Both the position numbers and the translations under genes were made by a program. The notes under the pieces are model-generated. The model saw nothing but the letters and a program-made list of their open reading frames with translations. It had not been told where the DNA came from and did no database searches. Positions 42,893 to 64,000 of a stretch of 64,000 bases of DNA are shown in pieces; the stretch's first letter is position 1, and every line of letters begins with the position of its first letter. The stretch comes from Eubacteriales Family XIII. Incertae Sedis bacterium (GTDB taxonomy: Bacteria; Bacillota; Clostridia; Peptostreptococcales; Anaerovoracaceae): assembly GCA_031261395.1 (NCBI GenBank), contig JAISJT010000004.1:8675-72674 (forward strand), given 5' to 3'.

Positions 42893-43741
42893 TTATTCAC
42901 TTTCCGGAAGACTTTCCGGAAGACTTTCCGAACTTGCAGGATCTTCCGGCGAGGTTTCGGCGACTGCCGCATCCAAAGCCGCAGGATCATCCGGGGTGAA
43001 CGAGCAGGCCCCGGTGTTTGTCACGTTGATTTTGCCGCGTTCGATGCCCTTGCCAAGCAAATCGGCGACCACTTTTTTCAGCTCATCGATGTTGTCTTCG
43101 ATATCCTTCAAACTTCCTTCTATATATAGTGTATCGAGAATATAGGCCCGCGGCACGACAGCGGTGACGTCAAGGCGCTCAGCGAAAAAATCATGCAGGC
43201 TCATCAGCTGGAAAAAATCGAGACTCGGCTTCAGCAAATCCGCCTCGTTCACCTTGAGGGGCTGCCCGGGAACCGGCGCTTGCGGCGTCAATCCGACGAC
43301 GAGCGGCAATTTGCTTCCCGCCTCGTCCGCGCGCAGGATGGTCCCGTCAAAATTGAGCACCAACACAGACTCTCCCGAAGCGACCAACACTTCCTCTGTA
43401 CGCTCGTCCAAAGAGATGGCGATGGCGTCCGGCAGATCCCATTTCGCCTGCGCCGACCGCACGTAGGGATCGGTTTCAAGGCGTTCTTCGATCTGCGAAA
43501 CGCGCACAGTGAAGATATTTTTGCCCTTTGGAACCCCTGCAAGCTCGATGACCTGCGCCGTCGTAAAATGCGCATTGCCCTCAACGGAAAAATTCTTGAC
43601 GTCGAAAATCGAAGACGTGCCGAGCAGGTAGAGCCCCGCGATGATGAGGACCACGATGAAGATATTGAGGAAGAAATGCTGCTTCCTCCGTTTGCCGCGC
43701 GCCGGCCTGCGCCTATGCGAAGTTTGTTCCGAATAACTCAT
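42893..43741 (-). CDS. ftsQ: FtsQ/DivIB (POTRA) cell division protein
   Basis: Basic N-terminus, TM, FDVKNFSVEGN, NIF, PYV, LPDAI..ER; position between murG and ftsZ. Confidence 0.85.
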   Translation of the reverse strand: MSYSEQTSHRRRPARGKRRKQHFFLNIFIVVLIIAGLYLLGTSSIFDVKNFSVEGNAHFTTAQVIELAGVPKGKNIFTVRVSQIEERLETDPYVRSAQAKWDLPDAIAISLDERTEEVLVASGESVLVLNFDGTILRADEAGSKLPLVVGLTPQAPVPGQPLKVNEADLLKPSLDFFQLMSLHDFFAERLDVTAVVPRAYILDTLYIEGSLKDIEDNIDELKKVVADLLGKGIERGKINVTNTGACSFTPDDPAALDAAVAETSPEDPASSESLPESLPESE

Positions 43742-47312: not shown

Positions 47313-47334
47313 GATGCTCTTATTATTTCCCTGT

Positions 47335-48411
47335 CTATCCAACGACTTTGCTCCACTGGGCGATCATCACAGCTGTGCAGATCACGCAGAGGAGGAAGGT
47401 GACGCTGACGAAGACGGTGACGACTTTTTTTTCGTGCCAGCCGGAGAGTTCGAAGTGGTGGTGCAGCGGCGCCATTTTGAAGACGCGCTTGCCGTGGCAG
47501 GCTTTGAAGACGCTGACCTGGATGATGTCGGAGAGAACTTCAGCCACGAAGACGAAGCCGGCGATCGGCAGCAGGAGTTCCATGCGCGTGAAGATGGCGC
47601 AGGCCGCGATGCCGCCGCCGATGGCGAGCGAGCCGGTGTCGCCCATAAATATCTTCGCGGGATGGCGGTTGAAAAACAGGAAGCCGATGCAGGCGCCCGC
47701 GAGGGCCGCGAAAAACATCGCGTCGCCGAAGTTTTGCGAGAGATTCGGGATGACGTAGGGTCCGGTTTTCATCAGGCTGAGACCGAAACCGATCATGGCG
47801 AAAATCGGGAAAAAGATCGAGACGACGAAGCTCGTGCAGGAGGCGAGGCCGTCAAGGCCGTCCGTCAGGTTCACGGCGTTGGCCATGGCGACGATGATGA
47901 AGACGATGTAGGCGATCATGAAGGGTCCGATATCGAAGGCCTTCCACGAAAACGGGATGATGATCCAGGTACCCATCTTCGCGGGCAGGACATACCAGAG
48001 CGCGACGGCGAGGCCGGCGACGATCTGCAAGGCGAGTTTGTGGCGCGCGCGCAGACCAAGGTTGCGGCGGCGCGAAATTTTTTGCCAGTCGTCCACGAAA
48101 CCGATAAGGCCAAAGACGGCGAAAGCAAGCAGGATGACCAACAGATTTTGAGAGAAGCCGTAGATCAGCATCGAAACGCCGCTGCCGGCCACGGCGCCGA
48201 TGATGATAGCGATGCCGCCCATCGTCGGGGTGCCGGATTTGGCCTTGTGCTCTTCGGGCGCCAGCTCGTAGGTCGTCTGTGTGCTGTGGGCCTTCTTCAG
48301 CCAGGGGATCAGCGCCGACGTCACGGCGGCCGTGACGAGACAGGCCACCGCAAACGGGATGGCGACCTGAAGGGCGAAATTGGCTTCTATACTTACGCTT
48401 GGCAGCAGCAT
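47335..48411 (-). CDS. mraY: Phospho-MurNAc-pentapeptide transferase
   Basis: KSGTPTMGG, GFVDD, NAVNLTDGLDGLA, FMGDTGSL, MAPLHHHFELSGW. Confidence 0.97.
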   Translation of the reverse strand: MLLPSVSIEANFALQVAIPFAVACLVTAAVTSALIPWLKKAHSTQTTYELAPEEHKAKSGTPTMGGIAIIIGAVAGSGVSMLIYGFSQNLLVILLAFAVFGLIGFVDDWQKISRRRNLGLRARHKLALQIVAGLAVALWYVLPAKMGTWIIIPFSWKAFDIGPFMIAYIVFIIVAMANAVNLTDGLDGLASCTSFVVSIFFPIFAMIGFGLSLMKTGPYVIPNLSQNFGDAMFFAALAGACIGFLFFNRHPAKIFMGDTGSLAIGGGIAACAIFTRMELLLPIAGFVFVAEVLSDIIQVSVFKACHGKRVFKMAPLHHHFELSGWHEKKVVTVFVSVTFLLCVICTAVMIAQWSKVVG

Positions 48412-49899
48412 CTACGCCTCCGTCCCCTGCTCTATCAGGGCATTTGCTACGATTTCCATATGCATCGAATGCGAGCCTTTCACCAAATATGCGTCGCCGG
48501 GGGTTTTGCCGGCCAAAAGAGCGGCGATCATTTCTTCCCGGTCTGGGCAAACACGAATATGGTCCGTGCCTGCGATTTCTCCTGCGCCCGCCGCTATTGC
48601 GCGCGCCTTTTCGCCGAAACACACGAGACTGTCGATCCGCCCGGCCGACAGATCGGCGCCGATCTCGCTCCCGAGGGAACGGTGGAGCGCCTCCGAATCC
48701 GGACCGAGTTCATTCATGTCCGCGAGTACTGCGATCCTGCGCGACGCCTCTGCCGATTTCAAAAAAATCAAGCCGCTCCGGCAGCTGTCCGGACTCGCGT
48801 TGTACGTATCGTCTATGACCAAGATGCCATCTTTTCGGATCGTTTGCAAACGGTGCGGCGTGCGCGCGAGGTTTTTCAGCGCGGCAGCGGCGCCGGCGAG
48901 GTCAATCCCGAGACGCGCTACCGCAGCGCAGGCCAGCGCGGACGTAGCGGCGGCATAGTCTCCCGGCACCGGCACGAGGAAGCGTTCCGCCATCTCGCCG
49001 CTCTCGATCTCAAAAGAGGCAGCCGCGGATTCTGTATCAAACCGTACCGGACCGTAATAATAATCCGCGTCCCCACCCGTGCGGCCTTTCGGCGCTACCT
49101 CGATCAAACGGTAACCCCTCGCCTTGCTGTCCGCACGCGCGCGCTGCGTCAGAGGCCAGTGGTTTTCGCGGTCGATCACGAGCCGGCCGCCCTCGCCCAT
49201 TTGACTGGCAGCCGCCAATTTTTCGAGCATGATACCGTCGTCCGAATCAAAGCATTCGCGGTGCGAGATACCGATATTGGTGATCGCAGCCACATCCGGC
49301 CCGGCGATCTGCGCGAGGCGGCCTATCTCCCCCGGACCGCCCATACCCATTTCGAGCACGAGCGCCTCCGTATCCGCAGACATCCCGAGGATGGTCTTGG
49401 GCAGACCGATTTGATTGTTGAAATTTCCCTGCGTCGCCACCGTATGAAAATCGTCTTTGACTATGCAGGCAATCATATCTTTGAGCGTCGTCTTGCCGAC
49501 GCTGCCGGTCACAGCGATCACATAGGGATCGACTTTGCTTCTATAATATGCGGCAAGATCCTGATAGGCGCGAAGCGTGTCCTCAACAACGATGACCACC
49601 GGCCCCCCGGGCGTCCCAACTGTCATCCCGGGCGTCCCAACTGTCATCCCGGGCTTGACCCGGGACCCATCCGAAACAACAAGAACCGCCGCGCCCTTTG
49701 CCGCCGCCTCCTCAAGATGATCGTGCGCATCATGGTTTTCCCCGATCAGCGCGAAAAATATCTCGCCGCCCGACAGCTCCCTCGTATCCGTAGAAACAGG
49801 GGCCGGCGTCTGCGCCATAGCAGGCGACCCAAACCGCATATCGACGGATCCGCCGATCTTGTCAATGATTTCTTCCGCTGTGAAAAGTCCCGCCATCAC
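48412..49899 (-). CDS. murF: UDP-MurNAc-tripeptide-D-Ala-D-Ala ligase with in-frame palindrome insert
   Basis: STDTR, TGSVGKTT, GNFNNQIGLP, LEMGM, DDTYNASP, DMNELG, VKGS. Confidence 0.95.
   Translation of the reverse strand: MMAGLFTAEEIIDKIGGSVDMRFGSPAMAQTPAPVSTDTRELSGGEIFFALIGENHDAHDHLEEAAAKGAAVLVVSDGSRVKPGMTVGTPGMTVGTPGGPVVIVVEDTLRAYQDLAAYYRSKVDPYVIAVTGSVGKTTLKDMIACIVKDDFHTVATQGNFNNQIGLPKTILGMSADTEALVLEMGMGGPGEIGRLAQIAGPDVAAITNIGISHRECFDSDDGIMLEKLAAASQMGEGGRLVIDRENHWPLTQRARADSKARGYRLIEVAPKGRTGGDADYYYGPVRFDTESAAASFEIESGEMAERFLVPVPGDYAAATSALACAAVARLGIDLAGAAAALKNLARTPHRLQTIRKDGILVIDDTYNASPDSCRSGLIFLKSAEASRRIAVLADMNELGPDSEALHRSLGSEIGADLSAGRIDSLVCFGEKARAIAAGAGEIAGTDHIRVCPDREEMIAALLAGKTPGDAYLVKGSHSMHMEIVANALIEQGTEA
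49606..49669. repeat. TGTCAT palindrome plus 21-bp tandem duplication inside murF
   Basis: (cccgggcgtcccaactgtcat)x2 then cccgggcttgacccgggaccca; encodes GSRVKPGMTVGTPGMTVGTPG. Confidence 0.92.
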
Positions 49900-49900
49900 T

Positions 49901-52045
49901 CTATTCCCAATACAGAAAGACCGTACTGCCCGGCGCCGCGAGCGTACCCGGCTTCGGATACTGATCTTTTACCTTCAAATTCATATTGACGGACGGCAAT
50001 TTTTGAGCGGGCGCCGTCGTCTGTTTGCCTTCTTCAAGGCCGTCCTCTACCGGGCCGTCCTCATCGGCCGGTTCCGGCGACGTCAGGTTTGATCTGAGTC
50101 CAAGCAGCGCAAGCGACGCATCCGCATCCGCGAGCGTCCAGTCCGTATAGTCGGCCACAGGGATTTTCTCAGAATTCATCTTCGCGATTTCTTCCTCTGT
50201 ATAATTCGGTTTGACATTCAGATATTGCAGCAGCTCGGTGGCGATCTCGTTGACGACGGGACCCGCTGTACCGATGCCGTAGTAGCCTACCCTCGGCGTA
50301 TCACAAAGCACCAGCGCAACGAATTTCGGATCGTCGATCGGCGCCACGATGACCATCGAGCCGATGGCGGCGCTTTCGGAATATTCGCCGTTTACGAGCT
50401 TCTGCGTCGTACCGGTTTTGATGCCGATGCGGTAGCCGCTGATCTTCGCAGCCGGTGAATTTTTCGCCTGCACTTCGGAGACGTGCTCCATGATCTCACG
50501 AACTTCGCGCGACGTATTTTCCGAAATCACCATGCGCTCGATCTTGTTCGGTATTTCTTCGACGATATTGCCTTCGCTGTCCGCATATGCCTTCACCACA
50601 TGCGGCTTCATCAGCTTGCCGTCGTTGGCGATCGCCCCGATGGCGGTGGCCATCTGAACCGGCGTCACGGAAAGGCCCTGCCCGAATGACATGGTCGCGA
50701 GGCCGACTGGTCCGGCCGTATCCGCATCCTGCACGAGCGGATTTTCCTCACCCGGCAGGTCGATCCCGGTCTTTTCCGTGATCCCGAAAAGCTGCAGATA
50801 ATTATAGAAACGCGGATATGTGAGCGCCTGCGTGATCTGCATCATGACCGGATTGCAGGAATTTGCCGTCCCGTCCCTGACGGTTTGCATGCCGTGCGCC
50901 CCCGGATATACCCAGCAGCGAATATTTCTGTCGGCAACGACGAAAGAACCGGCGCAGTTGAAGGTCGTCTCGGGCGTGATGACTCCGTCTTCGAGACCGG
51001 ACGAGACCGTGATCGTCTTGAACGGCGAGCCGGGGTCATAGACGTCGGAAATCACAGGATTGCGCCACATCTTGCTGAGATAGGCCGTCTGTTCCTCCGG
51101 AGGCATCACGCCAAAAATCGCGCGTTCCTCCTGCGTGATCGGCCTGCCCGGATCATTGGGGTCGTAGGGATCCGTATCGGCCATCGCAAGCACTTCGCCG
51201 GTCTTGGGATCGAGCACAATGGCCATCATGCGATCGGCTTCCGTCCGCTCGAGCCCCTTCTTCAGCGCCTCCTCGGCATAATACTGCATCGCCTCATCAA
51301 TGGTGAGTACAACACTGTAACCGTCCGTACTTGCATAATCCGCCCGCTCTCCCCCGGTGATGGCGCCGCCGACCCCGTCGGTACGCACTATTTTTCGCCC
51401 CGCGACGCCGGAAAGATATTGGTTGTATTCCATCTCAACGCCGGCCTGCCCGACGCCGTCATAATTGACGCTGCCGATCACCTTGGACGCAAGCGTACCG
51501 AGCGGATATTTGCGCGTCGTACGCTGTTCGAACTCGATGATATTGATATCTTTTTCGTTGATCTGTTCGCGAATCTGTTCCATCTGCGCCTTTGACATAT
51601 CGCTCGCGACGCGTACAAGGGTTTGATCGACATCCAGCTCGGCGAGCAGCTCTGCTATACTCTTGCCAAGCGCGGGTGCAAGAGCCGCAGCCGCCAGATC
51701 TTTCTGTTCCGCGAGTTTTGCGCCAAACTCCTCATCGTTGCTGTCGACGGGTTTCAGCCGAACCCACACGCGGTAACTGATTGTACTGACTGCAAGTTCA
51801 TTCATGTTGCGGTCAAAGATGGCGCCGCGTCCCGGCATGGTCCGAGTGTCCTTGATTTGATATTCCGCCGCCTTGCTCGCGTATTGCTCCGCCGCGACGA
51901 TTTGGATCCAGCCAATACGAAAGGTCAGCGCAACAAAAAGCACCAAAACAATGACAAAGACGCCCACCATCCGGCTGCGGATACCTGCGGCGCCTGCATT
52001 GGGATTATTATTCCGGGATCTCTGTCGTTGCCGCGTTTTCGCCAT
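49901..52045 (-). CDS. Class B penicillin-binding protein (FtsI/SpoVD-like) with C-terminal PASTA
   Basis: RGAIFDRN, RKYP, GVE, PGSPFK (SxxK), SCN, KTGT. Confidence 0.93.
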   Translation of the reverse strand: MAKTRQRQRSRNNNPNAGAAGIRSRMVGVFVIVLVLFVALTFRIGWIQIVAAEQYASKAAEYQIKDTRTMPGRGAIFDRNMNELAVSTISYRVWVRLKPVDSNDEEFGAKLAEQKDLAAAALAPALGKSIAELLAELDVDQTLVRVASDMSKAQMEQIREQINEKDINIIEFEQRTTRKYPLGTLASKVIGSVNYDGVGQAGVEMEYNQYLSGVAGRKIVRTDGVGGAITGGERADYASTDGYSVVLTIDEAMQYYAEEALKKGLERTEADRMMAIVLDPKTGEVLAMADTDPYDPNDPGRPITQEERAIFGVMPPEEQTAYLSKMWRNPVISDVYDPGSPFKTITVSSGLEDGVITPETTFNCAGSFVVADRNIRCWVYPGAHGMQTVRDGTANSCNPVMMQITQALTYPRFYNYLQLFGITEKTGIDLPGEENPLVQDADTAGPVGLATMSFGQGLSVTPVQMATAIGAIANDGKLMKPHVVKAYADSEGNIVEEIPNKIERMVISENTSREVREIMEHVSEVQAKNSPAAKISGYRIGIKTGTTQKLVNGEYSESAAIGSMVIVAPIDDPKFVALVLCDTPRVGYYGIGTAGPVVNEIATELLQYLNVKPNYTEEEIAKMNSEKIPVADYTDWTLADADASLALLGLRSNLTSPEPADEDGPVEDGLEEGKQTTAPAQKLPSVNMNLKVKDQYPKPGTLAAPGSTVFLYWE

Positions 52046-52559
52046 ATGCCTTCTCTTTGAGATAGGTCGCAAAATCCATCCCCGGTGAGGGCAGATCGGC
52101 TACATAGATATACTGGTCAAACCCGGGGTCTTTCATGCCAAGGTCCGACTCGGCCTTTTCCCTGATCATTTCGATATTTTGCGACTGTTTGATGTCGATC
52201 TTGACCTGTGTAATGTCATCCTCGGTCTGTGCGATATTTTGTTTCAGGTCATTGATTTCCTTTTGCGTGACCGCTGCCTGAGCAGCCATCATGATGACAG
52301 CCATCGCGATCGCGGAGACAATGATGATCAGGAGAGCAATCACCCGTATCTCCGCGCCGCTAAAAATACGAGCCTCTGGCTCTGGGTGGCACTCGGCTTC
52401 TATGCGGGAGGGAAGCGGCCTCAGGGCTTCGATGCGCGGCGCCGGTTCAAACGCCGGTTGCCGCGACCGATCCGGTCTGACCTGGCGGGCGTAACCGGAA
52501 CGGTTGCCCGAAGCAGTCCTATTCGTCCGTCTGTCTCTTTCGGCAGTAGCACGCGCCAT
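52008..52559 (-). CDS. FtsL-like cell division protein
   Basis: Basic N-terminus, single TM, coiled coil, IREKAESDLGM; position between rsmH and PBP. Confidence 0.75.
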   Translation of the reverse strand: MARATAERDRRTNRTASGNRSGYARQVRPDRSRQPAFEPAPRIEALRPLPSRIEAECHPEPEARIFSGAEIRVIALLIIIVSAIAMAVIMMAAQAAVTQKEINDLKQNIAQTEDDITQVKIDIKQSQNIEMIREKAESDLGMKDPGFDQYIYVADLPSPGMDFATYLKEKAYGENAATTEIPE

Positions 52560-52600
52560 TTTGTATTTCGCCCCCTTTCGTTGGTCTTTTGTTACTCTGT

Positions 52601-53545
52601 TTACAATTTTTCGAGGATACGAAGTTTGGCGCTTCTTGACCTCGGGTTTCTGCTGATTTCTTCTTCCGTCGGCAATATCGGTTTTCGATTCACGCGTCTG
52701 CCGTCCGCCACCTTGCCGCATACGCAGACCGGAAGTCCCTTTGGACATTCGCAAGGATCCTCCCTTTTGAGGAAAAACTCCTTCACGATGCGGTCTTCAA
52801 GCGAGTGAAAGGTGATGACCGCCAGCCTGCCCTTTGGCTTCAGAACTTCGGCAAATGCCGCAAGTCCCCGCTCGAGCGATCCAAGTTCATCGTTGACCTC
52901 GATGCGGATCGCCTGAAAGGTTCGCTTTGCCGGGTGCGGCCCATCGCGTCTGGCCGCCGCCGGGATCGCGTTTTTGATCACCCCGGTCAGCCGGGCGGTC
53001 GTCAGGATCGGCGCGATCTTCCTTTCCTTCACGATGAACGCTGCGATACGCTTCGCCCATCTCTCTTCACCGTAGTCCCGGATAATGCCGTACAGATCCT
53101 GTTCGCTGTATCCGTTCACTACATCAGCTGCTGTTAATTCCCCGTCTCGCTCCCCGCCGTTCATGCGCATGGAGAGCGGACCATCTTGCATATACGAAAA
53201 CCCGCGCGCCGGGTCATCCAACTGTTTTGACGAAACGCCCAAATCGAGGATCGCCCCGTCGAGCCCGTCTATTCCGTTTGCGGAAAGCGCCTGTGCGATC
53301 TCCGTGAAATTGCCCTGAAAAAATATCTTTCGCGGGAGGCCGCTCTCTATCCGCTTTGCTGCGGCCGATAGAGCCTCACCATCCTTGTCCATGCCGATCA
53401 GCGTACCCTTCGCGCCGATCTTTTCCGCTATCGCCAGCGCATGACCGCCGCCGCCGATCGTTCCGTCACAGATGACGGCGCCCTCCCGGAGGGCCAGCCC
53501 ATCCACCGCTTCATTCAGAAGTACGGAGGTATGGTCATAGTTCAT
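52601..53545 (-). CDS. rsmH: 16S rRNA C1402 methyltransferase RsmH
   Basis: HTSVLL, DGTIGGGGHA, DLGVSSKQLD, RGFSY, RTFQAIRIEVN, FHSLEDRIVK, NPRSRSAKLR. Confidence 0.97.
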   Translation of the reverse strand: MNYDHTSVLLNEAVDGLALREGAVICDGTIGGGGHALAIAEKIGAKGTLIGMDKDGEALSAAAKRIESGLPRKIFFQGNFTEIAQALSANGIDGLDGAILDLGVSSKQLDDPARGFSYMQDGPLSMRMNGGERDGELTAADVVNGYSEQDLYGIIRDYGEERWAKRIAAFIVKERKIAPILTTARLTGVIKNAIPAAARRDGPHPAKRTFQAIRIEVNDELGSLERGLAAFAEVLKPKGRLAVITFHSLEDRIVKEFFLKREDPCECPKGLPVCVCGKVADGRRVNRKPILPTEEEISRNPRSRSAKLRILEKL

Positions 53546-53972
53546 TATGATTCGCGACTTCGAGGATCAGGGCGCTGAGGTTTAGCGTCTTCGGATCCAT
53601 CTCTACGTCATACGCCTTCTTGTCCCAAAGTTCGATACGATCGCCCACTCCGACAAATACGATGTCCTTCTCAATACCGGCATATGCGAGATAGTCCGGC
53701 GGTATATTGATCCGGCCGTGTCCGTCGATTTCGACTTCTCTGGAATTGCCGAGGATTTGCCGCTGCAGTTTGCGGCCGGCGCCATCCTTGAGGCTGAGAG
53801 GTGTGATGTATTCCGCGAGAAAGTCATTCCACTTGTCCTGCGCCATGACATAAATGCAGGCGTCAAGACCGATCGCCAGCCAAACGCGCTCCTCAAGCCC
53901 GTACCGGAGTTTCGTCGGTACGAAGGCGCGACCCTTGCTGTCAACCGTATTGAAATAACTTCCTGTCAGCAT
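53535..53972 (-). CDS. mraZ: Transcriptional regulator MraZ
   Basis: DSKGR and DGHGRI repeats, VGVGDRIELW; first gene of dcw cluster. Confidence 0.95.
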   Translation of the reverse strand: MLTGSYFNTVDSKGRAFVPTKLRYGLEERVWLAIGLDACIYVMAQDKWNDFLAEYITPLSLKDGAGRKLQRQILGNSREVEIDGHGRINIPPDYLAYAGIEKDIVFVGVGDRIELWDKKAYDVEMDPKTLNLSALILEVANHNEL

Positions 53973-54372: not shown

Positions 54373-57300
54373 ATGAAGTCCTATCATGTTCCGTGCATAT
54401 CGCGTGCACTAAGACTTGTGATTCTCGTACTACTGTTGGCGCCGTTGATTTCCGTGACATTTCTCGGCAGCTTCGCGTATGCGGCCTCGAATGAAAAGGT
54501 CTCTGTTACTCTAAATGAAAGAGTTGATTGGGATGCGGCGCGGAATGCATTTGACCTTGTAAATCAGGAACGCATATCTAAGGGTAAGGCGGCGCTTGTC
54601 CTTGATAGCGATCTCATGAAAGCGGCGAGGACAAGGGCCGAAGAAATTGCTATCAAGTTTGGGCACACCAGACCTGACGGCACAAACTGGAATACCGCTC
54701 CGAACGTTCACACAGAGACAAAGATTGCGGAAAATATCGCAGCCGGGCAAATATCACCTGCCGAAGTTGTGAATGGCAGCAACGGCTGGATAAATTCCGC
54801 CACACACTATGCCGCACTTATCTCTTCTGATTACAAGAGCACGGGGCTTGCCTGTGTGAACATCGGCGGCACAAACTTCTGGGTGCAGCTGTTCAGTTCT
54901 AAAGAGGCGAAGCCTTTGGGCTCCGGGGAAAGTACTGGAACCGATACCGGGAGCGTGAATGTGAACACTTTGGTAGACAACTTGGATGTCGCTATTGTAT
55001 TTCAGCCAAAAGTTGCAAATACGGAGACTACCGCAAAATACTCCATAGTTCATCGCAACCACGAATTTGATATACCGCTAAAATATGCGCAATTCACAGG
55101 GTCGATCAGTCCCGCCGGACCGTCAGTCAACGATGCAAACGGCGAGATAGCTACAGGCACTGTCGTCGGTACATACGAGTTGTCGCTTGCCCTAAATGGT
55201 AGTTCGTATACAAAATCCGCAGATCTCAAAATCAAACTTCCGGCAGATTTCACGCCGCCACCGGTTCATACGGTCACCTATGAATTTGTCGATAGCGATG
55301 GGAACACCCTCTTTGACTCAGATGGAAATCGAGGAAACCTTACGACGGACGATTTCGATAAACTGCCTCCCCCAGCCACATTTGATACCGGCAGCAAGAT
55401 TTATGCGATGCCCGACGCCAAGAAGAAGCAGTACACATTCTCCGGGTGGTCAACAGGTGGGGCCTTCCCTGAAATAGACGAGGCGATATTTAACGGCGAG
55501 CCCTTTAAACTGCCTGACGCGGATATCGTCCTGAAAGGTTCTTTTGAAACGAGCGTATATCATGTCAACTATAATGATTATGACTTTGCAAATGGTAAAA
55601 CAGTTTTGTTGAAATCTATCGAGGTGAACTATGACTCGGTTGTTGGCTCACCGATATTGGAGCCTACCGGCTTTGTGCGAACAGATATGAGTGCGCCGGA
55701 GGTGCAAATTGATGGCACATTCATTACTCCAGTTCCTGACGATAGAGGATATTATGTTTATGAGGATAGACCATACCAAGAAATCGGTGGGACAACATAC
55801 ATACTTGGAGGCGTAAGTGATGCCCTGTCTTCATGGCAAGCAACGGCGGAGACAATAAATAATGCAGAATTTCTTGGAATTGATAAATTTCCGGGTACTG
55901 ACATCCAAACAGCTGATGCGGATCGATATACACACTTCACAGGTGATGTGAACCTATATCTCAAGAGGGTAAATCTCGATATCGACCGGGAAGAAGTATC
56001 GTCTCTGGAAGATGATATGATTAAAGTATACTATTACGCCTCTCTTTCGGATTTGATTGTAGACGGTTCCGGCGGTTTTAGTGTCAATAACCCGATCGCC
56101 GTTAGGCTTGTACCAAGGGATAAACTTGTTGATACTCCGATACTACCCGAATCCGGAAATGTCTCCATTGAGGATTATTTTAAGAACGATGCAAAATATG
56201 ATTTAGACTCAGAGAAGAATTCCACATACAAAGCGAATGTAAATTGGAGTTTCTTTGATTTTAGTACTGTGAAACCGTACACTTCTGATATGTATCAGGC
56301 TCCAATGACTTGGAATTTAGACACTTATAATGACAATTATGGCTATAAGAAACACCTGTTTGACAAGGGAGCGTTTGTAGAGGAAGATTTGCATGTAGAT
56401 GAAGTTACGACTTTCCCGAAGTTTTTTAACCTGGTAGAACAATTTTCAAGAAAATATATTGAAGCAAATTACTCGAAATATTATGACGGCGATGACAACC
56501 GGATAGAGGATCCCGGTATGCCCGGAAACTATTTGGTTGACAATGATCAAATGTACCTTGACGCAGATAGATTTATTAAGGATATTGGTCTTGCGAATGG
56601 TTCCCCCTACGCCGGGTATACATCAATCAATATCTTTATCAGCGGGTTTTCAGCGAAACTCGCTTTTGATGCGAACTTACCTGCTGATGTGGCGAACGAT
56701 TTCGCCGGCGACAATGATGCGTTACAAACCGCAATAGGCAAAATGGGACTCCCTGATTTAGTTCCCCTCAATATTGACGAAGAAAACTTTTATGCAGGAG
56801 GCAACGAAAAAGTAAACGTTACCATACCGAAGGATGTACCTTCCTTGGGCAGCGCTTACTCGCAGATATACGCTTTCAAGGGATGGACGCTTGATGAGGA
56901 AGGAAACGGTACACTATACCAGCCCGGAGAAAATATTTTAGTTGATGCAAACTATCAAACCCTCAAATATGGTGCAAATTATGCATATGGTTTGCCGCTC
57001 TATGCGAAATGGGAAAAACGCACATATACTGCGTCTTACTATTTCCAGGCCAGTGACAGCACACCCTTTGCCACCAAGGACTTAGAGTGGGAGGATGAGG
57101 CATTTCCGGATGTACCTGCAAATGAGTTGGTTGCCGCTTTGTTCACCTTGCTCGGAGTAGATATATCAGAGTATGACGTCACCGCCAGCGCCGCGGGCTT
57201 GCTGCAGGTGGCGCTCGGTACCGATGACGAAGGTGATGATATCACGCTTTATCTGTCGGATTATAGTACAAATCCAAATTTATCCGCAAATCCATCTACG

Positions 57301-57888
57301 GTATCCGAATTCCTGGCGACGAAAACATATGATTATATAAACTTTATTCTTGACTGGGAAGCGGTCAAGCCGGCCGGTATGGATTTGACGGTTGAATCCG
57401 ACTATGTGGACAATACCCCCGCGGATCCTGTAGTTCCGCCGCCCCCCGGAGATGATCCTCCCAAGGACGATCCGCCAAAAGATGATCCTCACAAGGACGA
57501 TCCGCCAAAAGATCCTTCTGATGATCCCGCTGAAGATCCATATGAAGATCCATCCGGGCCACCCTCGGATAATAGCGGCCAAACGCCGGCGCCTGCCGCC
57601 ACCGTTGGGCGCAATACGTCTACGCCGCTTGCCGCACCTTCACCCGCCAATGCCCTGCCTGCCGCACCGGTGGACACCATCGCTCCTCCTCCGGTAGCCA
57701 CTGACAGCGCACCGGCATATAATCCCGAAGGCAAAGAAATAGATCCTGTGCAGCCGCCCGGGGAAGACCACGGCTTGACGCCGGCTCAGACAGCGATCAT
57801 CATCGGCGTGCTCGCGGCTGCGATCCTATTGGCTGTGAAGTTCGGAGTGTTCAGCGCACTAAAGACATTGCTGATTCATAATAAATAG
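54373..57888 (+). CDS. Large surface protein: signal peptide, CAP/SCP domain, InlB B-repeat-like segments, Pro/Asp-rich stalk, C-terminal TM anchor
   Basis: AYA cleavage; LVNQER...AARTRAEE...HTRPDG...ENIAAGQ...WINSATH...FWVQLF; YTFSGWS, FKGWT...LYAKW; DDPPK repeats; hydrophobic tail. Confidence 0.8.
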   Translation: MKSYHVPCISRALRLVILVLLLAPLISVTFLGSFAYAASNEKVSVTLNERVDWDAARNAFDLVNQERISKGKAALVLDSDLMKAARTRAEEIAIKFGHTRPDGTNWNTAPNVHTETKIAENIAAGQISPAEVVNGSNGWINSATHYAALISSDYKSTGLACVNIGGTNFWVQLFSSKEAKPLGSGESTGTDTGSVNVNTLVDNLDVAIVFQPKVANTETTAKYSIVHRNHEFDIPLKYAQFTGSISPAGPSVNDANGEIATGTVVGTYELSLALNGSSYTKSADLKIKLPADFTPPPVHTVTYEFVDSDGNTLFDSDGNRGNLTTDDFDKLPPPATFDTGSKIYAMPDAKKKQYTFSGWSTGGAFPEIDEAIFNGEPFKLPDADIVLKGSFETSVYHVNYNDYDFANGKTVLLKSIEVNYDSVVGSPILEPTGFVRTDMSAPEVQIDGTFITPVPDDRGYYVYEDRPYQEIGGTTYILGGVSDALSSWQATAETINNAEFLGIDKFPGTDIQTADADRYTHFTGDVNLYLKRVNLDIDREEVSSLEDDMIKVYYYASLSDLIVDGSGGFSVNNPIAVRLVPRDKLVDTPILPESGNVSIEDYFKNDAKYDLDSEKNSTYKANVNWSFFDFSTVKPYTSDMYQAPMTWNLDTYNDNYGYKKHLFDKGAFVEEDLHVDEVTTFPKFFNLVEQFSRKYIEANYSKYYDGDDNRIEDPGMPGNYLVDNDQMYLDADRFIKDIGLANGSPYAGYTSINIFISGFSAKLAFDANLPADVANDFAGDNDALQTAIGKMGLPDLVPLNIDEENFYAGGNEKVNVTIPKDVPSLGSAYSQIYAFKGWTLDEEGNGTLYQPGENILVDANYQTLKYGANYAYGLPLYAKWEKRTYTASYYFQASDSTPFATKDLEWEDEAFPDVPANELVAALFTLLGVDISEYDVTASAAGLLQVALGTDDEGDDITLYLSDYSTNPNLSANPSTVSEFLATKTYDYINFILDWEAVKPAGMDLTVESDYVDNTPADPVVPPPPGDDPPKDDPPKDDPHKDDPPKDPSDDPAEDPYEDPSGPPSDNSGQTPAPAATVGRNTSTPLAAPSPANALPAAPVDTIAPPPVATDSAPAYNPEGKEIDPVQPPGEDHGLTPAQTAIIIGVLAAAILLAVKFGVFSALKTLLIHNK
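57451..57550 (+). repeat. Intragenic 15-bp tandem repeats (DDPPK)
   Basis: gatgatcctcccaag gacgatccgccaaaa gatgatcctcacaag gacgatccgccaaaa, then degenerate DP units. Confidence 0.8.
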
Positions 57889-59956
57889 ATCCCTGCGGTG
57901 CAGTCAGTCCTATGCGCTGCTGCATCGCGAGATCTTCTTTGATATTGTCGATCTCGTTTTGGCCGCGCGCCGTGAGCAGTTCAAATTCATGGGCCGCACC
58001 GGGGTCGTCATTGTAGAGCATCGCGTAGGCAAGCATATAGTGGGCGAAGGAGGACTCCGGCATCTTTGCCACGGCCTCCTCGGCAGTCTTCTGTGCCAGC
58101 GCAGGATCCCGGTCAAAGATCAGTTCATAATAAGACAGCCTCGCCAGATACTCGGACCGGTGATAGTCTCCGAGGGTTTCCGATACGGGTTCGTATTGCG
58201 CAAGACAGACGTCATAGGCTTTGCGGGCCTCGGTCAGTTCATCCATATCCAAATAATTCTCTGCGATATTGTAATACAGCCTTGCGGTGAGCGCCGCCCT
58301 CGCCGGTGTATCGCTCTTCAGGGATGTTTCCCTGATGCGGGCGGCATCTCCGTAGTATTTTGCGGCGCCCTCATAGTCGCCGGCCACATTCAGCGATGCG
58401 CCGTAATTGGCGCAGGTGGTGGCGAGCGCTTCCGCCGCCGCTGCGTTGTCCTTGTCGGAAGCAAGCGCCTCGAAATACCCGATCGCTCTTGCAAAATAGG
58501 CGTCCGCACTACCCTGATCCCCTGCGAGGTTGACGGTATTTGCATAGGAAGCGCAGGCGGAGGCGAGGCTCATCAGATTGGTTCGCGTTTGGCCGTTTTC
58601 GTAAAGCGCTTCTGCGACGCTCACTTGCTTTGCGATCCATTCGGTAGCATCCGCATACTCCGCCAGCATGGCGTAGCCGGTTCCGAGGTTTTGGCAGGTG
58701 AGCATATAGGAACGCTGTACCTCCGGCGAGTCAGCGTCCGGCAAGCCGCCGAGAAATTCGGCACAGGACATGAGGAGCGAGATAGATTCGTCATAGCTTC
58801 CTATACGCGCAAGATTTGCGGCCTGGTTGTGGTAGCAGGCGGCAAGGCCAAGCGCGGCTCCGGGATCGGTCAGATCCAAGCGCTGCACACGCACCGCCTC
58901 CGCGAGCGCCGGCCCGGCCTCCTCAAAATCGCCGGATTCGCTCAGTCTGCTGCCCAACGCCGTCAAACTTTTTGCATACAACAGGATCGCTTTGCTGTCG
59001 CCCGATTCGGGAGCCGCCTTGAGCAGCCCTGCGGCCTCTCTGACTGAAGATATCGCCTTTTTGGTATCACCGAGTACATCGTATACGCCCGCAAGTTTCA
59101 TAAGGTTCTCGGCTTTTTGCTGCGCTACCGCATCGGGGTCTTTTGCCATGCCGAGGATGGAATTGATCTCCGCCACGTTTTGCTCGAGGGTGCTTTCAAT
59201 CAGGCGCTGTGTACCGGGTATGTTTGCAAGGTCCGCAGGCAGGGTATAGGTGAGCGAATAGAGCATATCCATCGTCGCCGCCTGTTCGGTCTGCGCGGTA
59301 TCGCGGTAGCCCGCAGCAGAGGCCCAAAGCCCGGCCGCGACCACGATCACGGCTGCAAAGGCGGAGGCGATCCCCGCAAAACGAGCCGCCATCTTGCGCC
59401 GTCTTCTTTGGGAGTCAAGCGCGGCCAGCGATTCATAGGTACAGCCCGCTTTGCCGGCCACGACCCGCAAAAGTTCACTCTTCACATTTTGGAGGAGCTT
59501 CTTTTCGTAGGCCTTGCCGTCGGACGGATCTGTATCCGTCACGCGGACATCGAGCAAGCGGTCTGCAATGTCGGGAATACGCTTGAGACTTGGCAAAAAT
59601 GATTTTTCTTCATCGCCGTTGATCAGCAAGGCGTAGACATACTGGGATCTGCCGAGTTCGATAAAGGTCTGGACTTCCTTGTCGCACCATGCGGAGGCCG
59701 GCAGGTCGGTCGTACACAGGACGACGAGGATGCGCGTACTATGCAGCGCTTCGGTGATCGCATCACTCAGGATACGGGAAACCGCGAGTTCCTCCGTGTC
59801 ACGAAATACGCGCCCGATACCGGTCAGGCCCTGCTCGGTCAAGGATTTTGGAAGTGCATAAGTTTCGAGAAACGGCAGCGCCGTCCCCGCCACCTTGCCG
59901 TCAAGATCCTTGTGCCGGTAGCTGATGAAAGCATCGTAAATAAAATCTTCGTTCAT
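57851..59956 (-). CDS. TIR domain - TM helix - TPR-repeat protein
   Basis: YDAFISYRH, VFRDTEEL, LVVLC, SAWCDKEV; RRRRK then hydrophobic helix; about 8 helical repeats such as LAACYHNQAANL, LATTCANYGASL, ARLYYNIAENY. Confidence 0.88.
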   Translation of the reverse strand: MNEDFIYDAFISYRHKDLDGKVAGTALPFLETYALPKSLTEQGLTGIGRVFRDTEELAVSRILSDAITEALHSTRILVVLCTTDLPASAWCDKEVQTFIELGRSQYVYALLINGDEEKSFLPSLKRIPDIADRLLDVRVTDTDPSDGKAYEKKLLQNVKSELLRVVAGKAGCTYESLAALDSQRRRRKMAARFAGIASAFAAVIVVAAGLWASAAGYRDTAQTEQAATMDMLYSLTYTLPADLANIPGTQRLIESTLEQNVAEINSILGMAKDPDAVAQQKAENLMKLAGVYDVLGDTKKAISSVREAAGLLKAAPESGDSKAILLYAKSLTALGSRLSESGDFEEAGPALAEAVRVQRLDLTDPGAALGLAACYHNQAANLARIGSYDESISLLMSCAEFLGGLPDADSPEVQRSYMLTCQNLGTGYAMLAEYADATEWIAKQVSVAEALYENGQTRTNLMSLASACASYANTVNLAGDQGSADAYFARAIGYFEALASDKDNAAAAEALATTCANYGASLNVAGDYEGAAKYYGDAARIRETSLKSDTPARAALTARLYYNIAENYLDMDELTEARKAYDVCLAQYEPVSETLGDYHRSEYLARLSYYELIFDRDPALAQKTAEEAVAKMPESSFAHYMLAYAMLYNDDPGAAHEFELLTARGQNEIDNIKEDLAMQQRIGLTAPQGSIYYESAMSLVR

Positions 59957-59964
59957 ATCATCCT

Positions 59965-61254
59965 CTACAAGATCACATATTGCAGGAGCTTCAGCTGCTC
60001 TGTCGTCACTTTTTGCACGCGCAGGGTAGGTCCTTCTTCGCCAAAGGTGACGAGACTCGCTTCGCTCACAGACCCGGGGATCAGCTCCGAAAACGCCGCC
60101 GAATAATCCCTGTATTTTGCAAAGGGTTCGGCGTTCAGTGCGGTGATGATCTCGCCGCGTGCTATCGGCGATACATCGCTGTCATAGTCGATCACGAAGA
60201 CAATACAGCCCGCGCCCCCTGCACCGGCCGCGATGGCATATCGGTAAGCGTTTTCGTATCGGGTTTTATTATTGAGAAGCAGTGAAGATCGCTCAAGCGC
60301 GGCTTCATATGCCTCTTCTGCTGCGGACTCCCCGAGCCGTCTCAGTATGGATGCCTTTTTCAAAACGGCCAAGGCCGCATCGCCTTCTTTTATTTTCAGA
60401 ATACTGTCCGTATCGACGGCTTCAAGATTGGCGCTGCCGTTTGCCACGAGCGCATCCAAACTATCGAGTATAGCTTCGTCAACAACGAGGTCAGCCCCTG
60501 AAATCGCTGCGGCCTGCTGCGGCAGATCCGTGACGATCCTTTCCACTGTATTGGCGCTTGCCGCTGTCTGAAGTTCGGCGATAGCGCCTTCATTGTATGC
60601 GGTGAATCCAAGATACAGAAAGATCACGGCGCAGATCACGCTGACGCTTCCGATGCCGAGGGCCAGAGTAGCGAAACGCTGTCTGCGCCTGCGTTCATGG
60701 CGTTTTTCGAGTTCATCGGGGTGAAGACCCGTCAGTGCGGCGACGATGCGCACGGTCTCGTAGGCAAGCATATTCTTGTACTCCGATGTGCCGGCGCCGC
60801 GAAGGTCGGAGGCTATCGGACTCAGTACATCGGTGACCTTTTCGATCGATCCGTCCTTCAGTATGCGCTCAATGATCCTGGTGGTATAGAAAAAATCAGG
60901 TATGGCCTTTCGGGATTCACCGCTGGCCAATACAGGGATGATCGCATCCCGCCTGCCGCTCTTTTCGAAATATTTCAGCCGTTCCAAAATCGCCGGATTG
61001 TCTTTTGTCCCCGGCGAACAAATGAGGATCATCGCGCGGCAGGAGTCCAGCCGCTGTTTGACGGCAGCATCCGTCACCGGCAGTTCGTCAAAGTCTTCGG
61101 CGAAATCAGTGTATCCGGGCAAATCGGCAGAAATACCCTTTGGCAGACGGTAGGCAGAGAGCGCCGCCGCAACGTCTTTGGCCGCTTTGATATCGCCGTC
61201 ATTTGAAAGCGAAGTCAGAATGTAGTCATGCCGGCCAAATACGGACTCGGTCAT
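59965..61254 (-). CDS. Degenerate TIR-like domain - TM helix - helical and PDZ-like C-terminus
   Basis: Aligns by eye with neighbour (LSAYRLPK/LETYALPK, MILICSP/LVVLCTT, ETVRIVA/ELLRVVA, RRRRQR+TM); WCxxE position reads AILER; C-terminal RGEIITALNAEP resembles PDZ GDxIxxxNG. Confidence 0.7.
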   Translation of the reverse strand: MTESVFGRHDYILTSLSNDGDIKAAKDVAAALSAYRLPKGISADLPGYTDFAEDFDELPVTDAAVKQRLDSCRAMILICSPGTKDNPAILERLKYFEKSGRRDAIIPVLASGESRKAIPDFFYTTRIIERILKDGSIEKVTDVLSPIASDLRGAGTSEYKNMLAYETVRIVAALTGLHPDELEKRHERRRRQRFATLALGIGSVSVICAVIFLYLGFTAYNEGAIAELQTAASANTVERIVTDLPQQAAAISGADLVVDEAILDSLDALVANGSANLEAVDTDSILKIKEGDAALAVLKKASILRRLGESAAEEAYEAALERSSLLLNNKTRYENAYRYAIAAGAGGAGCIVFVIDYDSDVSPIARGEIITALNAEPFAKYRDYSAAFSELIPGSVSEASLVTFGEEGPTLRVQKVTTEQLKLLQYVIL

Positions 61255-62804
61255 TTGACCACATCAGCATTACTGACTTCCTCATACGAGTATGCAAAAA
61301 TCTTATTATCGATTATATAGGAACTGAGAGGCTTGTCGTATCTGACCGCGACGTAGTCACCCGGTTTTCCAAACATATAGCCATCCGGATACCACGAGGC
61401 AAAGATCTTCGTATCGCGCTCGAGCGGCGCCGCATAGATGTACGATTCGCCGGTGGGGACACAGGGCTTTGCGTATTCCATGAGCGGAAACTGCTTGCCG
61501 TAGAGCTTGTCGTGGGCAGTCGGTGTATAGAAATCGGCATCGCTTATCAGCGGGCTGAATTCGAATGTGCCGTCTAATTTTTCGTAGGTGCTGTCGAATG
61601 TTTTGCGGCTGATGGGATAGGTTTCGCCCTGTATGCCGATCATCAGCAGCGTGTCATCCGTGATCTGGAAGTCGGCGTCGCCCTCCATGGTCCTGACGGA
61701 AATGGCTGATCCCGGAGGAAATACCTCTGACATCTCCACATAGGCTACGGTCACAGGTTTCTTTCTGTATGTTTTCATAGCGCTCGTATCCAAGGCGTCA
61801 ACGCCCGAGACGATTTTGTCATAGGTCCGGAAGTAATCCTGAATGCGCCCGGCAAGAAAGTCCCTCGCGGCGCCGGCGTCTTCGGGACATTTCAAAAACC
61901 CGCCGGCTTTGTCACGGGTGCCGCCTCCGCTTCCGACTCCCTGCGTCAGATAAGCCGCCATCTCGTTTGCCATGACTTCGTTTGTGGAACTGCGCAGCGA
62001 CAGTTTGACGCCGCCGTTGATTTCGCTGAATCCGACGCAGGTGGTCACGCCATCCACCTGCTGCGTCATGTCGCTGATAAACCCGAGGATATTTGGGTCG
62101 CACTGCTCAACTTCGAACATCACGTTGCCGATCTCATCGAAATAGTGAACGTCTCCGAGTGCGCGCCCCGCGATCACGAGTTCCTCCTTTGTCAGATTGA
62201 CGCCTTTGAGTTTTTTGATGAATCTGGTGTCGAAGTGCAGATGATCCAGCATGTCGCGGTCTACGGGGTGAAACATTTCCGCGAGATTGTTTGTGTCCAT
62301 ATAGAGCCCGTAATAAAGAGCCGTCGAGACACCTTCGTGATCATCGAGATTCCAGCCTATATCTTTGAGAAGCGTCCAGACAAGGGTCGCGCAGCTTCCG
62401 AGATATGCCTTGATGTCCGCCGAGATATACTCGTTCGTTTCCTTAATATGATGATCTATGACGCAGACCTTGTCCGCTTCGATGCGTGTCACATTGCCGG
62501 CGCCGTGCTGGCAGTCAACCGTGATGAGCAGGGGATCGCCCGGCAAGAGTTCCTGTGCCGAAGGCGTCTGCTTGCCAAGGAATTCGAGCGGCATGGAAAG
62601 CTCATCGGCAAAGATAGTCAGGTTTGGCTTCTTGATGGAATTGAATCCGGCATAGACCATTTTGGCAGGCTCGCCAAGCGAGGTGAAATACCGATAAAGC
62701 GCATAGGCGCTCGCGATCGTGTCGGCATCGGGATTGTCATGGCACTGGAGGATGACTCCGGCGTGCTCCGGCAGCGTATTGAGTGTCAATGGTGTTTCAT
62801 TCAT
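61251..62804 (-). CDS. DHH/DHHA1 phosphoesterase with duplicated C-terminal PGDYG-like domain
   Basis: HDNPDAD, TVDC, IDHH, GSCAT, GLYMDT, SLRS, GGGTRDKAGG; tail YRKKPV...RTMEG...IGIQGETYPI...FDSTYE and GKPGDYV...YII...FAYSYE. Confidence 0.85.
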   Translation of the reverse strand: MNETPLTLNTLPEHAGVILQCHDNPDADTIASAYALYRYFTSLGEPAKMVYAGFNSIKKPNLTIFADELSMPLEFLGKQTPSAQELLPGDPLLITVDCQHGAGNVTRIEADKVCVIDHHIKETNEYISADIKAYLGSCATLVWTLLKDIGWNLDDHEGVSTALYYGLYMDTNNLAEMFHPVDRDMLDHLHFDTRFIKKLKGVNLTKEELVIAGRALGDVHYFDEIGNVMFEVEQCDPNILGFISDMTQQVDGVTTCVGFSEINGGVKLSLRSSTNEVMANEMAAYLTQGVGSGGGTRDKAGGFLKCPEDAGAARDFLAGRIQDYFRTYDKIVSGVDALDTSAMKTYRKKPVTVAYVEMSEVFPPGSAISVRTMEGDADFQITDDTLLMIGIQGETYPISRKTFDSTYEKLDGTFEFSPLISDADFYTPTAHDKLYGKQFPLMEYAKPCVPTGESYIYAAPLERDTKIFASWYPDGYMFGKPGDYVAVRYDKPLSSYIIDNKIFAYSYEEVSNADVVK

Positions 62805-62918: not shown

Positions 62919-64000
62919 ATGCACAATGAAGCGCGCAGAGCGGCGTGGGTCGAGATATCACTTGGCAGCATCGCGGACAATTTCAGAGAAATCAAACGGC
63001 TGGCCGGGGACAGCGAGACAATTTGCTGCATCAAGGCCGACGCCTATGGTCACGGCATCGTAAAGACCGCCTGGGAGCTTATCAAGGCCGGCGCGGACGC
63101 ATTCGGCGTGGCAACGATCATGGAAGCTGTCGCGCTTCGCAGCGCCGGCATCCGCAAAGATATCATCTTGCTCTCCGCCACACCGCGCGGCAATTTCAAG
63201 GACGTTCTCGACCAAAATCTCACGCCGGTCATCACGTCGGTGGAAGATGCGCGTCTGCTTTCGGAAATAGCCGAGCGCACCGGCGCGAAAAATCCGATCC
63301 CCTACTATGCGGCAGTCGAGACCGGCATGGGGCGCCTTGGCTTCCTTTACACAGAGAAAGGCGTGGCCGATATCGTCAGTCTTGCCACCATGCCACACCT
63401 AAGGATGAAGGGTATCTTTTCCCACTTTGCGACCTCAGACGAGACGGATCTTTCCTACGCACACGCCCAGCTTCGCATCTTTGACGCCTTTGCGACACAG
63501 CTCATCAAAGCAGGCGTAGACCCGGGGCAAAAATCGATTGCCAACAGCGCGGCTATCATGATGCTGCCCGAAGCAAACTTTGACGTGGTCAGGCCGGGCA
63601 TCGTCCTCTACGGTCTATATCCGTCCGGCGATGTCGACAAATCAAGGCTCCCGCTTTCCCCGTCCATGAGCGTGCGGGGCTATATCGTATATCTCAAAAA
63701 AGTACCTTCTGGATTTTCCGTGAGTTACGGCAGGCATTTCACCACGGCGCGCGAAAGTCTGATTGCGACGATATCGATCGGCTACGGCGACGGATTGCCA
63801 CGCATCCTGGGCGGCAAGGGGCGCGTCATCGTACGCGGCAGGTACGCGCCGATCGTCGGTACGATCTGCATGGATCAATTCATGATAGATGTCACGGATG
63901 TGCCAGGCGTCACCGAATACGACGAAATCACGGTGCTGGGCGAACAAGACGGACTCGCGATCACAGCCGGGGAAATCGCAGAATTAGCGGGAACAATTAG
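62919..64000 (+). CDS. alr: Alanine racemase (3' end beyond window)
   Basis: Manual translation from ATG 62919: AWVEISL...IKADAYGHG...VETGMGRLG...FSHFATSD...NSAA...VRPGIVLYG...VSYG...IGYGDG...GTICMDQ. Confidence 0.95.
   Translation, partial: MHNEARRAAWVEISLGSIADNFREIKRLAGDSETICCIKADAYGHGIVKTAWELIKAGADAFGVATIMEAVALRSAGIRKDIILLSATPRGNFKDVLDQNLTPVITSVEDARLLSEIAERTGAKNPIPYYAAVETGMGRLGFLYTEKGVADIVSLATMPHLRMKGIFSHFATSDETDLSYAHAQLRIFDAFATQLIKAGVDPGQKSIANSAAIMMLPEANFDVVRPGIVLYGLYPSGDVDKSRLPLSPSMSVRGYIVYLKKVPSGFSVSYGRHFTTARESLIATISIGYGDGLPRILGGKGRVIVRGRYAPIVGTICMDQFMIDVTDVPGVTEYDEITVLGEQDGLAITAGEIAELAGTI

Follow-up and report, generated by a model that had tools for sequence, protein, structure and literature searches.

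A conserved bacterial locus linking a DHH-DHHA1 phosphoesterase to a predicted pair of Toll-like TIR membrane receptors

What is a DHH-DHHA1 phosphoesterase doing in one operon with two membrane proteins that carry TIR domains? The question is raised by three genes in a 64,000-nucleotide (nt) stretch of DNA from Eubacteriales Family XIII. Incertae Sedis bacterium (assembly GCA_031261395.1, contig JAISJT010000004.1, positions 8,675 to 72,674, forward strand), which is referred to here in its entirety as the window. An initial annotation had proposed that the three genes form a signalling system without a recognized name, and neither PADLOC nor the literature supplied one. The locus is real and conserved, apparently undescribed, and apparently a variant of TIR nucleotide signalling. 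There is a fair chance that its membrane proteins belong to a new class of receptor.

The locus and its receptor pair

The three genes are co-oriented, as had been annotated:

61251..62804, minus strand: P0001, DHH-DHHA1 phosphoesterase with a tandem PGDYG-like tail, 517 amino acids (aa), recognized by Pfam, AlphaFold and fold match
59965..61254, minus strand: P0002, pseudo-TIR receptor, 429 aa, with a degenerate TIR, a predicted transmembrane (TM) helix at residues 197-215, a helical stalk, a short TPR-like part and a PDZ-like end
57851..59956, minus strand: P0003, active-type TIR receptor, 701 aa, with TIR, predicted TM helix at residues 193-211, stalk and TPR ectodomain

They are also closely coupled. 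The genes for P0001 and P0002 overlap by ATGA at 61251-61254, and those for P0002 and P0003 are separated by a gap of 8 nt (59957-59964). A promoter scan gave a single site near the start of the operon, which overlaps the ATG and was not used, and no terminator was found after the operon.

Both receptors have the architecture first ascribed to them: a TIR domain, a basic stretch, one TM helix and a C-terminal part. Pfam finds TIR_2 (E 4.7e-5) and TPRs in P0003 and only a weak TIR_2 (E 0.0057) in P0002, which phmmer places in the same TIR family. Each protein has one hydrophobic 19-mer (mean 2.45 and 2.16); the 15 residues leading into it include 7 and 6 lysines or arginines, those that follow 0 and 1. 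Because the basic residues precede the helix, this positive-inside pattern predicts that the TIR domain is inside and the C-terminus outside. The features on which the comparison of the two receptors turns are the following:

60979..60981, minus strand: Arg92 of P0002, at the position of the TIR catalytic Glu (by alignment)
59675..59677, minus strand: Glu94 of P0003, at the TIR catalytic position, W-x-x-x-E (by alignment)
60610..60666, minus strand: predicted TM helix of the pseudo-TIR protein (by hydrophobicity), within the predicted interface
59324..59380, minus strand: predicted TM helix of the active-type TIR receptor (by hydrophobicity, with co-folding contacts)
59980..60216, minus strand: PDZ-like outer domain of P0002, about residues 347-425 (aligned with distant relatives)

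The distinction between a pseudo-TIR and an active-type TIR holds across relatives of the two proteins. The catalytic position of 32 pseudo-TIRs is occupied by R (23), K (4), A (3) or L (2) and by Glu in none of them, while all 27 TIR-TPR relatives keep both Trp90 and Glu94 and the catalytic Glu is present in 53 of 53 non-pseudo TIR rows. The best conserved region is the juxtamembrane segment in the pseudo-TIR (0.69) and the catalytic core in the TIR-TPR protein (0.73), a pattern that would fit two copies having divided their tasks after duplication. A PDZ-like domain closes the long pseudo-TIRs and is absent from a group of 281 aa. P0002 itself has no direct Pfam match to PDZ; PDZ_2 is found in four of four distant relatives, with E from 4.6e-6 to 4e-4. 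The initial annotation mentions neither this domain, nor the tail of P0001, nor the patchy occurrence of the DHH gene.

To judge from neighbouring genes, the two receptors belong together. In a survey of 75 metagenomic loci, with a profile built from 25 of 33 rows, the TIR-TPR gene directly follows the pseudo-TIR gene in 56 of the 61 loci that could be tested, and five further genomes of the class carry the pair. Co-folding of P0002 with residues 1-560 of P0003 gave a score of 0.62, as against 0.00 for the best control; the mark used is attained by 116 of 157 solved pairs and by 2 of 215 mismatched pairs. At least 93% of contacts recur between runs, the partner pLDDT is at least 79, and the confident contacts are between the TM helices, between the outer stalks and between the PDZ-like domain and the TPR part, with no confident TIR-TIR contact listed. 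The co-folding result supports pairing but does not show it, because the receptors are paralogous and the pass may reflect a homodimer-like fit. The pair is therefore best described as a conserved unit and a predicted heterodimer. Several receptor genes are split or shortened (L085:1832-3753, L101:7458-10559, L088:5491-5895, L089:4447-6316), which suggests turnover or assembly errors.

The DHH protein, its tail and their linkage to TIR genes

Conservation of DHH genes next to genes for TIR-TM proteins had been set beforehand as a test of the annotation, and the linkage proved to be conserved. A profile from an alignment of 45 of 120 listed homologues was used to fetch the best 80 of 594 confirmed GTDB loci. 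A TIR gene lies no more than 3 kb from the DHH gene in 54 of these (within 500 nt in 51), 49 with a TIR of the P0003-like subfamily and 5 with one from three other subfamilies, in records from Bacillota, Fibrobacteria and Synergistaceae. A TM helix follows the TIR domain in 54 of 55 proteins of the main family and in 9 of 9 others. The outer domains are mostly WD40 propellers but include TPR, DUF6273, Sel1, NPCBM and trypsin domains, and the commonest partner of the DHH gene is a single TIR-TM-WD40 gene. Arrays of the latter stand behind one DHH gene in two loci, three in L027:11575-19112 and two in L048:11589-16607, all of which keep the catalytic Glu.

The association is also seen at the level of genomes. 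In an even sample of the class (399 scored genomes), the main TIR family occurs in 34 genomes, the full DHH protein in 26 and the two together in 23 (2.2 expected, 7 genera sharing both), although relatives do not count as independent and such genomes were among the sources of the profiles. The two genes are adjacent by coordinates in 16 of the 23. A sample of the phylum (401 genomes) gave five with TIR, five with DHH and two with both, and in two of the three remaining DHH genomes a TIR of another subfamily adjoins the DHH gene. TIR_2 occurs elsewhere in four of five genomes with a TIR-less DHH locus, an observation that was discarded, as the same is true of 4 of 14 controls. Because the DHH protein swaps partners across TIR subfamilies, a small-molecule link fits better than protein contact.

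What failed of the initial annotation is the trio as the unit. The DHH gene is directly upstream of the pseudo-TIR gene in none of 58 testable metagenomic loci, and in two it is one surface-protein gene away. The contiguous trio is found in three genomes, those of the window, L003 and L004, and linkage of DHH to receptor is retained in L003, L004, L199 and L201. The five class genomes with the receptor pair have DHH on other contigs (three) or no DHH match (two).

The DHH protein consists of an enzyme part and a tail:

62205..62756, minus strand: DHH catalytic domain of P0001, residues 17-200 (HDNPDAD, D97, DHH at 117-119, D170)
61830..62132, minus strand: DHHA1 domain, about residues 225-325 (SxRS intact, GGGH reads GGGT)
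61275..61778, minus strand: tandem PGDYG-like module, residues 343-510, candidate nucleotide-binding tail (by Atlas, PHROG 419/4502/1810/36774 and hhalign)

Pfam recognizes DHH (E 6e-13) and DHHA1 (E 2.5e-5) in P0001, which reaches no NCBIfam cut-off. In the AlphaFold model (pLDDT 91), residues 4-328 match the folds of TmPDE, DhhP, NrnA/Pde2 and GdpP with Z of 25.9, 24.8, 24.2 and 21.8, respectively, the best being TmPDE 5o1u (rmsd 3.1, 300 aligned). The metal motifs (DxD, D, DHH, D) are intact and are retained in 81-82 of 82 loci. The GGGH motif of DHHA1 is characteristic of NrnA/GdpP-type phosphoesterases; its His is present in 72 of the 82 loci, the residues in the others including Thr, Asn and Ser. 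The closest titled relative of P0001 (82% identical) comes from a metagenome-assembled genome of Eubacteriales Family XIII that carries the same trio (L003). A homologue 54% identical, P0020, is assigned by name to Thiorhodovibrio frisius, which belongs to a distant lineage.

The tail of 170 aa is conserved like the enzyme part (column identity 0.61-0.62 vs 0.63-0.67). Atlas puts it near PGDYG clusters, and its feature and structure neighbours carry PGDYG. P0001 has no match to Pfam PGDYG (PF14083), and of 45 relatives 2 have one, at E 0.02 or worse; longer relatives pass the gathering score on added units; the tail is thus PGDYG-like by sequence and is not filed here as a member of PF14083. 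Folded alone it gives a pLDDT of 91.5. A search of the PDB by fold returned nothing at E 0.001 with Foldseek and at best an SH3-like match with VIA (Z 4.9), and PDB sequence searches with the tail and with phage profiles gave nothing significant; the missing PDB match does not show that the fold is new. The internal repeat is weak (hhalign 14.7%, E 0.002), so the word "tandem" rests also on repeated secondary structure.

The first half of the tail is homologous to small phage proteins (hhalign 98.6%), and the tail model has five viral structure matches with E < 0.001. The phage family is abundant, with at least 576 confirmed of at least 601 pattern matches (L207-L286 among the fetched loci). 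Two scans, one yielding 9 contigs and the other the best 80 of 576, together gave 87 different phage contigs; in the second, 61 of 80 copies are shorter than 125 aa, mostly standing alone. One copy is fused to Sequestin, PF21825 (L129:4809-5336), and another to an Acb2/Tad1 hairpin (L123:4995-5729; 26.5 bits, cut-off 27). In the available text of its report, Sequestin is described as a sponge that cancels type I Thoeris, itself discovered through a fusion (10.1101/2025.07.12.664507). Among 113 neighbours of the phage homologues there was one Acb2/Tad1, hence no enrichment for sponges. The small phage protein is a candidate new anti-defence sponge.

A profile of the tail found 616 representatives, and 48 chosen from the best 150 were scanned for domains. 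These included nine class III cyclases (P0303, P0249, P0254, P0269, P0282, P0284, P0287, P0311, P0327), one GGDEF protein and one soluble TIR-DHH-tail protein, a single such fusion among 148 representatives. At their C-terminus the cyclase fusions have a DHHA1-like remnant followed by the PGDYG-like tail, two of them with a receiver-domain match, and non-catalytic versions of about 330 aa occur alone too. Being fused to cyclases, GGDEF, TIR-DHH and phage sponges, the tail travels with nucleotide-signalling domains and may bind a nucleotide ligand itself. A literature query with "PGDYG" returned no publication.

The DHH gene might nonetheless be a mere hitchhiker beside the receptor pair, its tail serving housekeeping signalling of the cAMP or c-di-GMP type. 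The missing trio in metagenomic loci would be expected on that account, as would the tail's fusions to cyclases and GGDEF and the mostly housekeeping neighbours. It would leave unexplained why DHH goes with TIRs of four subfamilies, in varying gene order and across at least three phyla, why TIR, DHH and tail are fused in one protein, why the genes co-occur in genomes and why linkage is retained in the four loci named above. P0001, moreover, is the only DHH protein of its kind in its own genome, and its gene overlaps the receptor's start codon. I consider the absence of any tie very improbable.

Receiver, eraser or neither

The reading that I prefer, tentatively and at a little under an even call, runs from an outer cue through a receptor heterodimer and an NAD-derived messenger to the tail of the DHH protein, with the phosphoesterase as output. 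An outside cue would bind a heterodimeric Toll-like receptor of P0002 and P0003, paired, as modelled, through TM helices and outer stalks with the PDZ-like domain touching the TPR part. The linked surface protein would be one candidate for the ligand or a co-receptor. By analogy with Thoeris and other TIR enzymes, the single active-type TIR, that of P0003, likely converts NAD+ to a messenger of the ADP-ribose type. The messenger is likely received by the PGDYG-like tail of the DHH protein, where binding would switch on or feed the phosphoesterase.

The surface protein in the window is encoded next to the operon:

54373..57888, plus strand: P0004, CAP-domain surface protein, 1171 aa (by Pfam), convergent with a 38-nt 3' overlap, a possible accessory part

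It is 34% identical over its length to the product of the gene after the trio in L003, and its third-position GC content (GC3) is lower than that of the trio, 0.47. A large surface protein is in fact the commoner neighbour of the receptor pair, in 41 of 52 testable loci. The usual family is of 800-1070 aa with a core that matches nothing in Pfam, often in two copies (L196:2724-5933, L147:237-3023, L199:2989-5748); the window and L003 share the CAP-domain protein instead, and L004 has a third family. Locus and CAP gene are flanked (window 41602-53972 and 62919-64000, gene names taken from translations) by a cell-division cluster (mraZ, rsmH, PBP, murF, mraY, murD, ftsW, ftsZ) and alanine racemase. 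One other TIR gene, unrelated, is present in the genome (L287:967-3267, C63); its protein, read by eye, begins with a zinc-ribbon-like part, continues with TIR, helical repeats and TM, and has at its C-terminus a domain resembling those of L018/L055.

Other neighbours suggest what kind of signal is made. A K+ channel with a RyR domain lies near the pair in 10 of the 75 metagenomic loci, 8 of them among the 20 with long flanks (L152, L155, L157, L162, L172, L174, L185, L187, L194, L206). The RyR domain is C-terminal, often with a second membrane protein before, and in nine of the ten the channel occupies the upstream position that DHH has in L199 and L201. Four genomes without DHH have TIR-TM genes flanked by RyR plus TM (G781) or followed by TM genes (G682, G341, G230) that I take from their motif to be SLOG-like, with weak Pfam matches to DprA/DUF4231 (E 0.02-0.04); such loci include L106:4413-6113, L109:4360-5991, L110:4937-6808 and L108:9214-11177. 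In the available text of one report, RyR-domain proteins of phages are described as cleaving or sequestering 2'- and 3'-cyclic ADP-ribose (cADPR) (PMC13232231), which ties the receptor family by context to ADP-ribose-type signals. The channel is a candidate cADPR-gated channel, and the DHH protein is likely one of several signal receivers, given that the receptors elsewhere adjoin RyR K+ channels or SLOG-like membrane genes.

The main rival to a receiver is an eraser. Receptors and messenger would be the same, with the tail catching the TIR product, the DHH enzyme destroying it in the manner of GdpP/NrnA-type enzymes or ring nucleases, and the output lying elsewhere. The best folds (Z 22-26) are of this type, known sponges occur as fusion partners of the tail in phages, and the DHH and TIR genes stand apart in 7 of the 23 genomes that have both. 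Locus L099:4827-11407 has its own nuclease effector, combining in one run a gene for a RyR-like and CARF/Card1-like nuclease, a stand-alone RyR gene and DHH-PGDYG, with a convergent TIR-TM-NPCBM gene. An eraser calls for an output, yet most loci have two genes and no other effector, and no RyR match was found in the genome of the window, which is 83% complete. DHH, furthermore, fills in L199 and L201 the place held elsewhere by channel or SLOG-like genes (L152, L172). I regard the eraser as possible, if somewhat unlikely.

Alternatively, the TIR receptor may itself be the effector, draining NAD+ upon clustering and leading to abortive infection or dormancy. The pseudo-TIR would then set the threshold, and DHH would only recycle ADP-ribose or limit self-harm. 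TIRs drain NAD in several systems, according to the available part of a recent survey (10.64898/2025.12.03.692087), and pairs of pseudo-TIR and TIR-TPR mostly have no DHH nearby. The recurrent signal-binding neighbours (RyR, SLOG-like, CARF-nuclease, PGDYG tail) would however be superfluous, and I judge this account to be quite unlikely.

Returning to the DHH protein as receiver, there is a good deal that weighs against it, beyond the paralogy of the receptors and the relatedness of the genomes already mentioned. The nearest DHH proteins of solved structure are signal-degrading enzymes and are not known as effectors, and in P0001 the His of GGGH is replaced by Thr. In L099 the CARF/Card1-like nuclease with RyR beside DHH could be the output, which would leave DHH as an eraser there. 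No TIR is near DHH in 26 of the 80 loci, 11 of the 34 TIR genomes lack the full DHH protein (as they might if the TIR were the effector) and five fetched TIR-only loci have no evident partner. Immediately before the Arg92 position, 12 of 32 pseudo-TIRs, P0002 among them, have a Glu. Finally, sponge fusions are rare, 2 in the 87 phage contigs.

Whether the system serves defence or physiology is a separate matter. The initial annotation favoured physiology on grounds of native base composition. The composition is indeed native, the codon use of the three genes being ordinary for the genome (GC3 0.61-0.66 vs a genome median of 0.68). The argument drawn from it is weak, because the DHH gene is patchy (2 of 61 related genomes, its own counted). 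Related receptors adjoin genes of kinds usual in defence (channel, SLOG-like, CARF-nuclease). Defence is suggested by the patchy spread, by gene decay and by partners of defence type; housekeeping neighbourhoods and cyclase fusions point to physiology. The neighbour clusters of DHH/TIR loci read by eye as mostly housekeeping, and 27 chosen proteins were scanned with PADLOC, without background.

The broadest view would be of a family of true Toll-like surface receptors in bacteria, with TPR, WD40 or PDZ sensors, an obligate pseudo-TIR co-receptor, a cADPR-type messenger, interchangeable receivers (DHH-PGDYG, SLOG-like pores, RyR K+ channels) and a PGDYG-like sponge in phages. Taken whole it is unlikely. 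If it were true, sensing like that of Toll-like receptors and gating of RyR channels by cADPR would both exist in bacteria, and a very common phage protein would be an undescribed sponge against TIR-receptor signalling. A TIR family wired through the membrane would allow response to an outside cue, such as phage adsorption, neighbours or envelope damage. The locus also marks RyR-domain channels as candidates for a cADPR receiver and offers a direct test of the uncharacterised PGDYG-like module, fused as it is to DHH, cyclases and phage sponges, with hundreds of phage copies. All of the parts are small enough for expression and assay.

Comparison with known systems

The locus resembles Thoeris in having a TIR with a catalytic Glu (Glu94 of P0003) next to a partner in which an enzyme or pore is coupled to a module that likely binds a ligand, the partners being interchangeable. 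The match to ThsB_TIR is weak, E 0.017 here and down to 1.7e-9 in relatives. Scanned with the 2023 set of PADLOC, the three proteins have no Ths match, and P0003 alone has a weak one to SAVED_TIR. In the Pfam and NCBIfam scans the scores were 15.9 bits for ThsB_TIR (cut-off 21.2, which some relatives pass) and 11.8 for ThcB4 (cut-off 220). What sets the locus apart from Thoeris is that the TIRs are predicted to cross the membrane once and to carry large outer domains (TPR, WD40 or others), that a pseudo-TIR co-receptor accompanies the active-type one, that the partner enzyme is DHH-PGDYG and that housekeeping genes make up most of the neighbourhood.

The 2025 survey of Thoeris (types I-XI) lists 29 putative effector types, naming "hydrolases" among them, and the available portion of its main text does not contain "DHH", "phosphoesterase" or "WD40" (10.64898/2025.12.03.692087). 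A 2024 survey of E. coli, to the extent of the text available, finds that membrane features like those of Toll-like receptors seem absent from bacterial TIR systems and does not mention DHH, WD40 or PDZ (PMC11350192). Nor do RyR, DHH or PGDYG appear in PMC9503650, or DHH in PMC7159879. The literature compared does not describe bacterial TIR signalling proteins as membrane receptors with outer sensors and has no counterpart to a conserved co-receptor with a dead TIR. No published description of this system was found in a search that left most subscription journals outside. Burroughs et al. 2015 may mention such neighbourhoods.

With stand-alone DHH-DHHA1 phosphodiesterases (TmPDE, DhhP, NrnA/Pde2, the catalytic domain of GdpP), P0001 shares fold and metal motifs. 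It differs from them in its low identity (16-21%), tandem PGDYG-like tail, GGGT for GGGH and linkage to TIR receptors. The phage homologues of the tail resemble the sponges Sequestin and Acb2/Tad1 insofar as one is fused to each (L129, L123); unlike these and RyDEP, the PGDYG-like module has no solved relative and is mostly stand-alone in phages.

Toll-like receptors of animals have outer leucine-rich repeats (LRR), one TM helix and an inner TIR, and some act as heterodimers of the TLR2/1 type. The receptors described here likewise have an outer repeat domain, one TM helix, an inner TIR and a predicted heterodimer. They differ in that the order is reversed, with the TIR N-terminal, that TPR/PDZ or WD40 stands in place of LRR, and that the TIR is of the enzyme type. 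The resemblance is best taken as one of analogy, not of descent.

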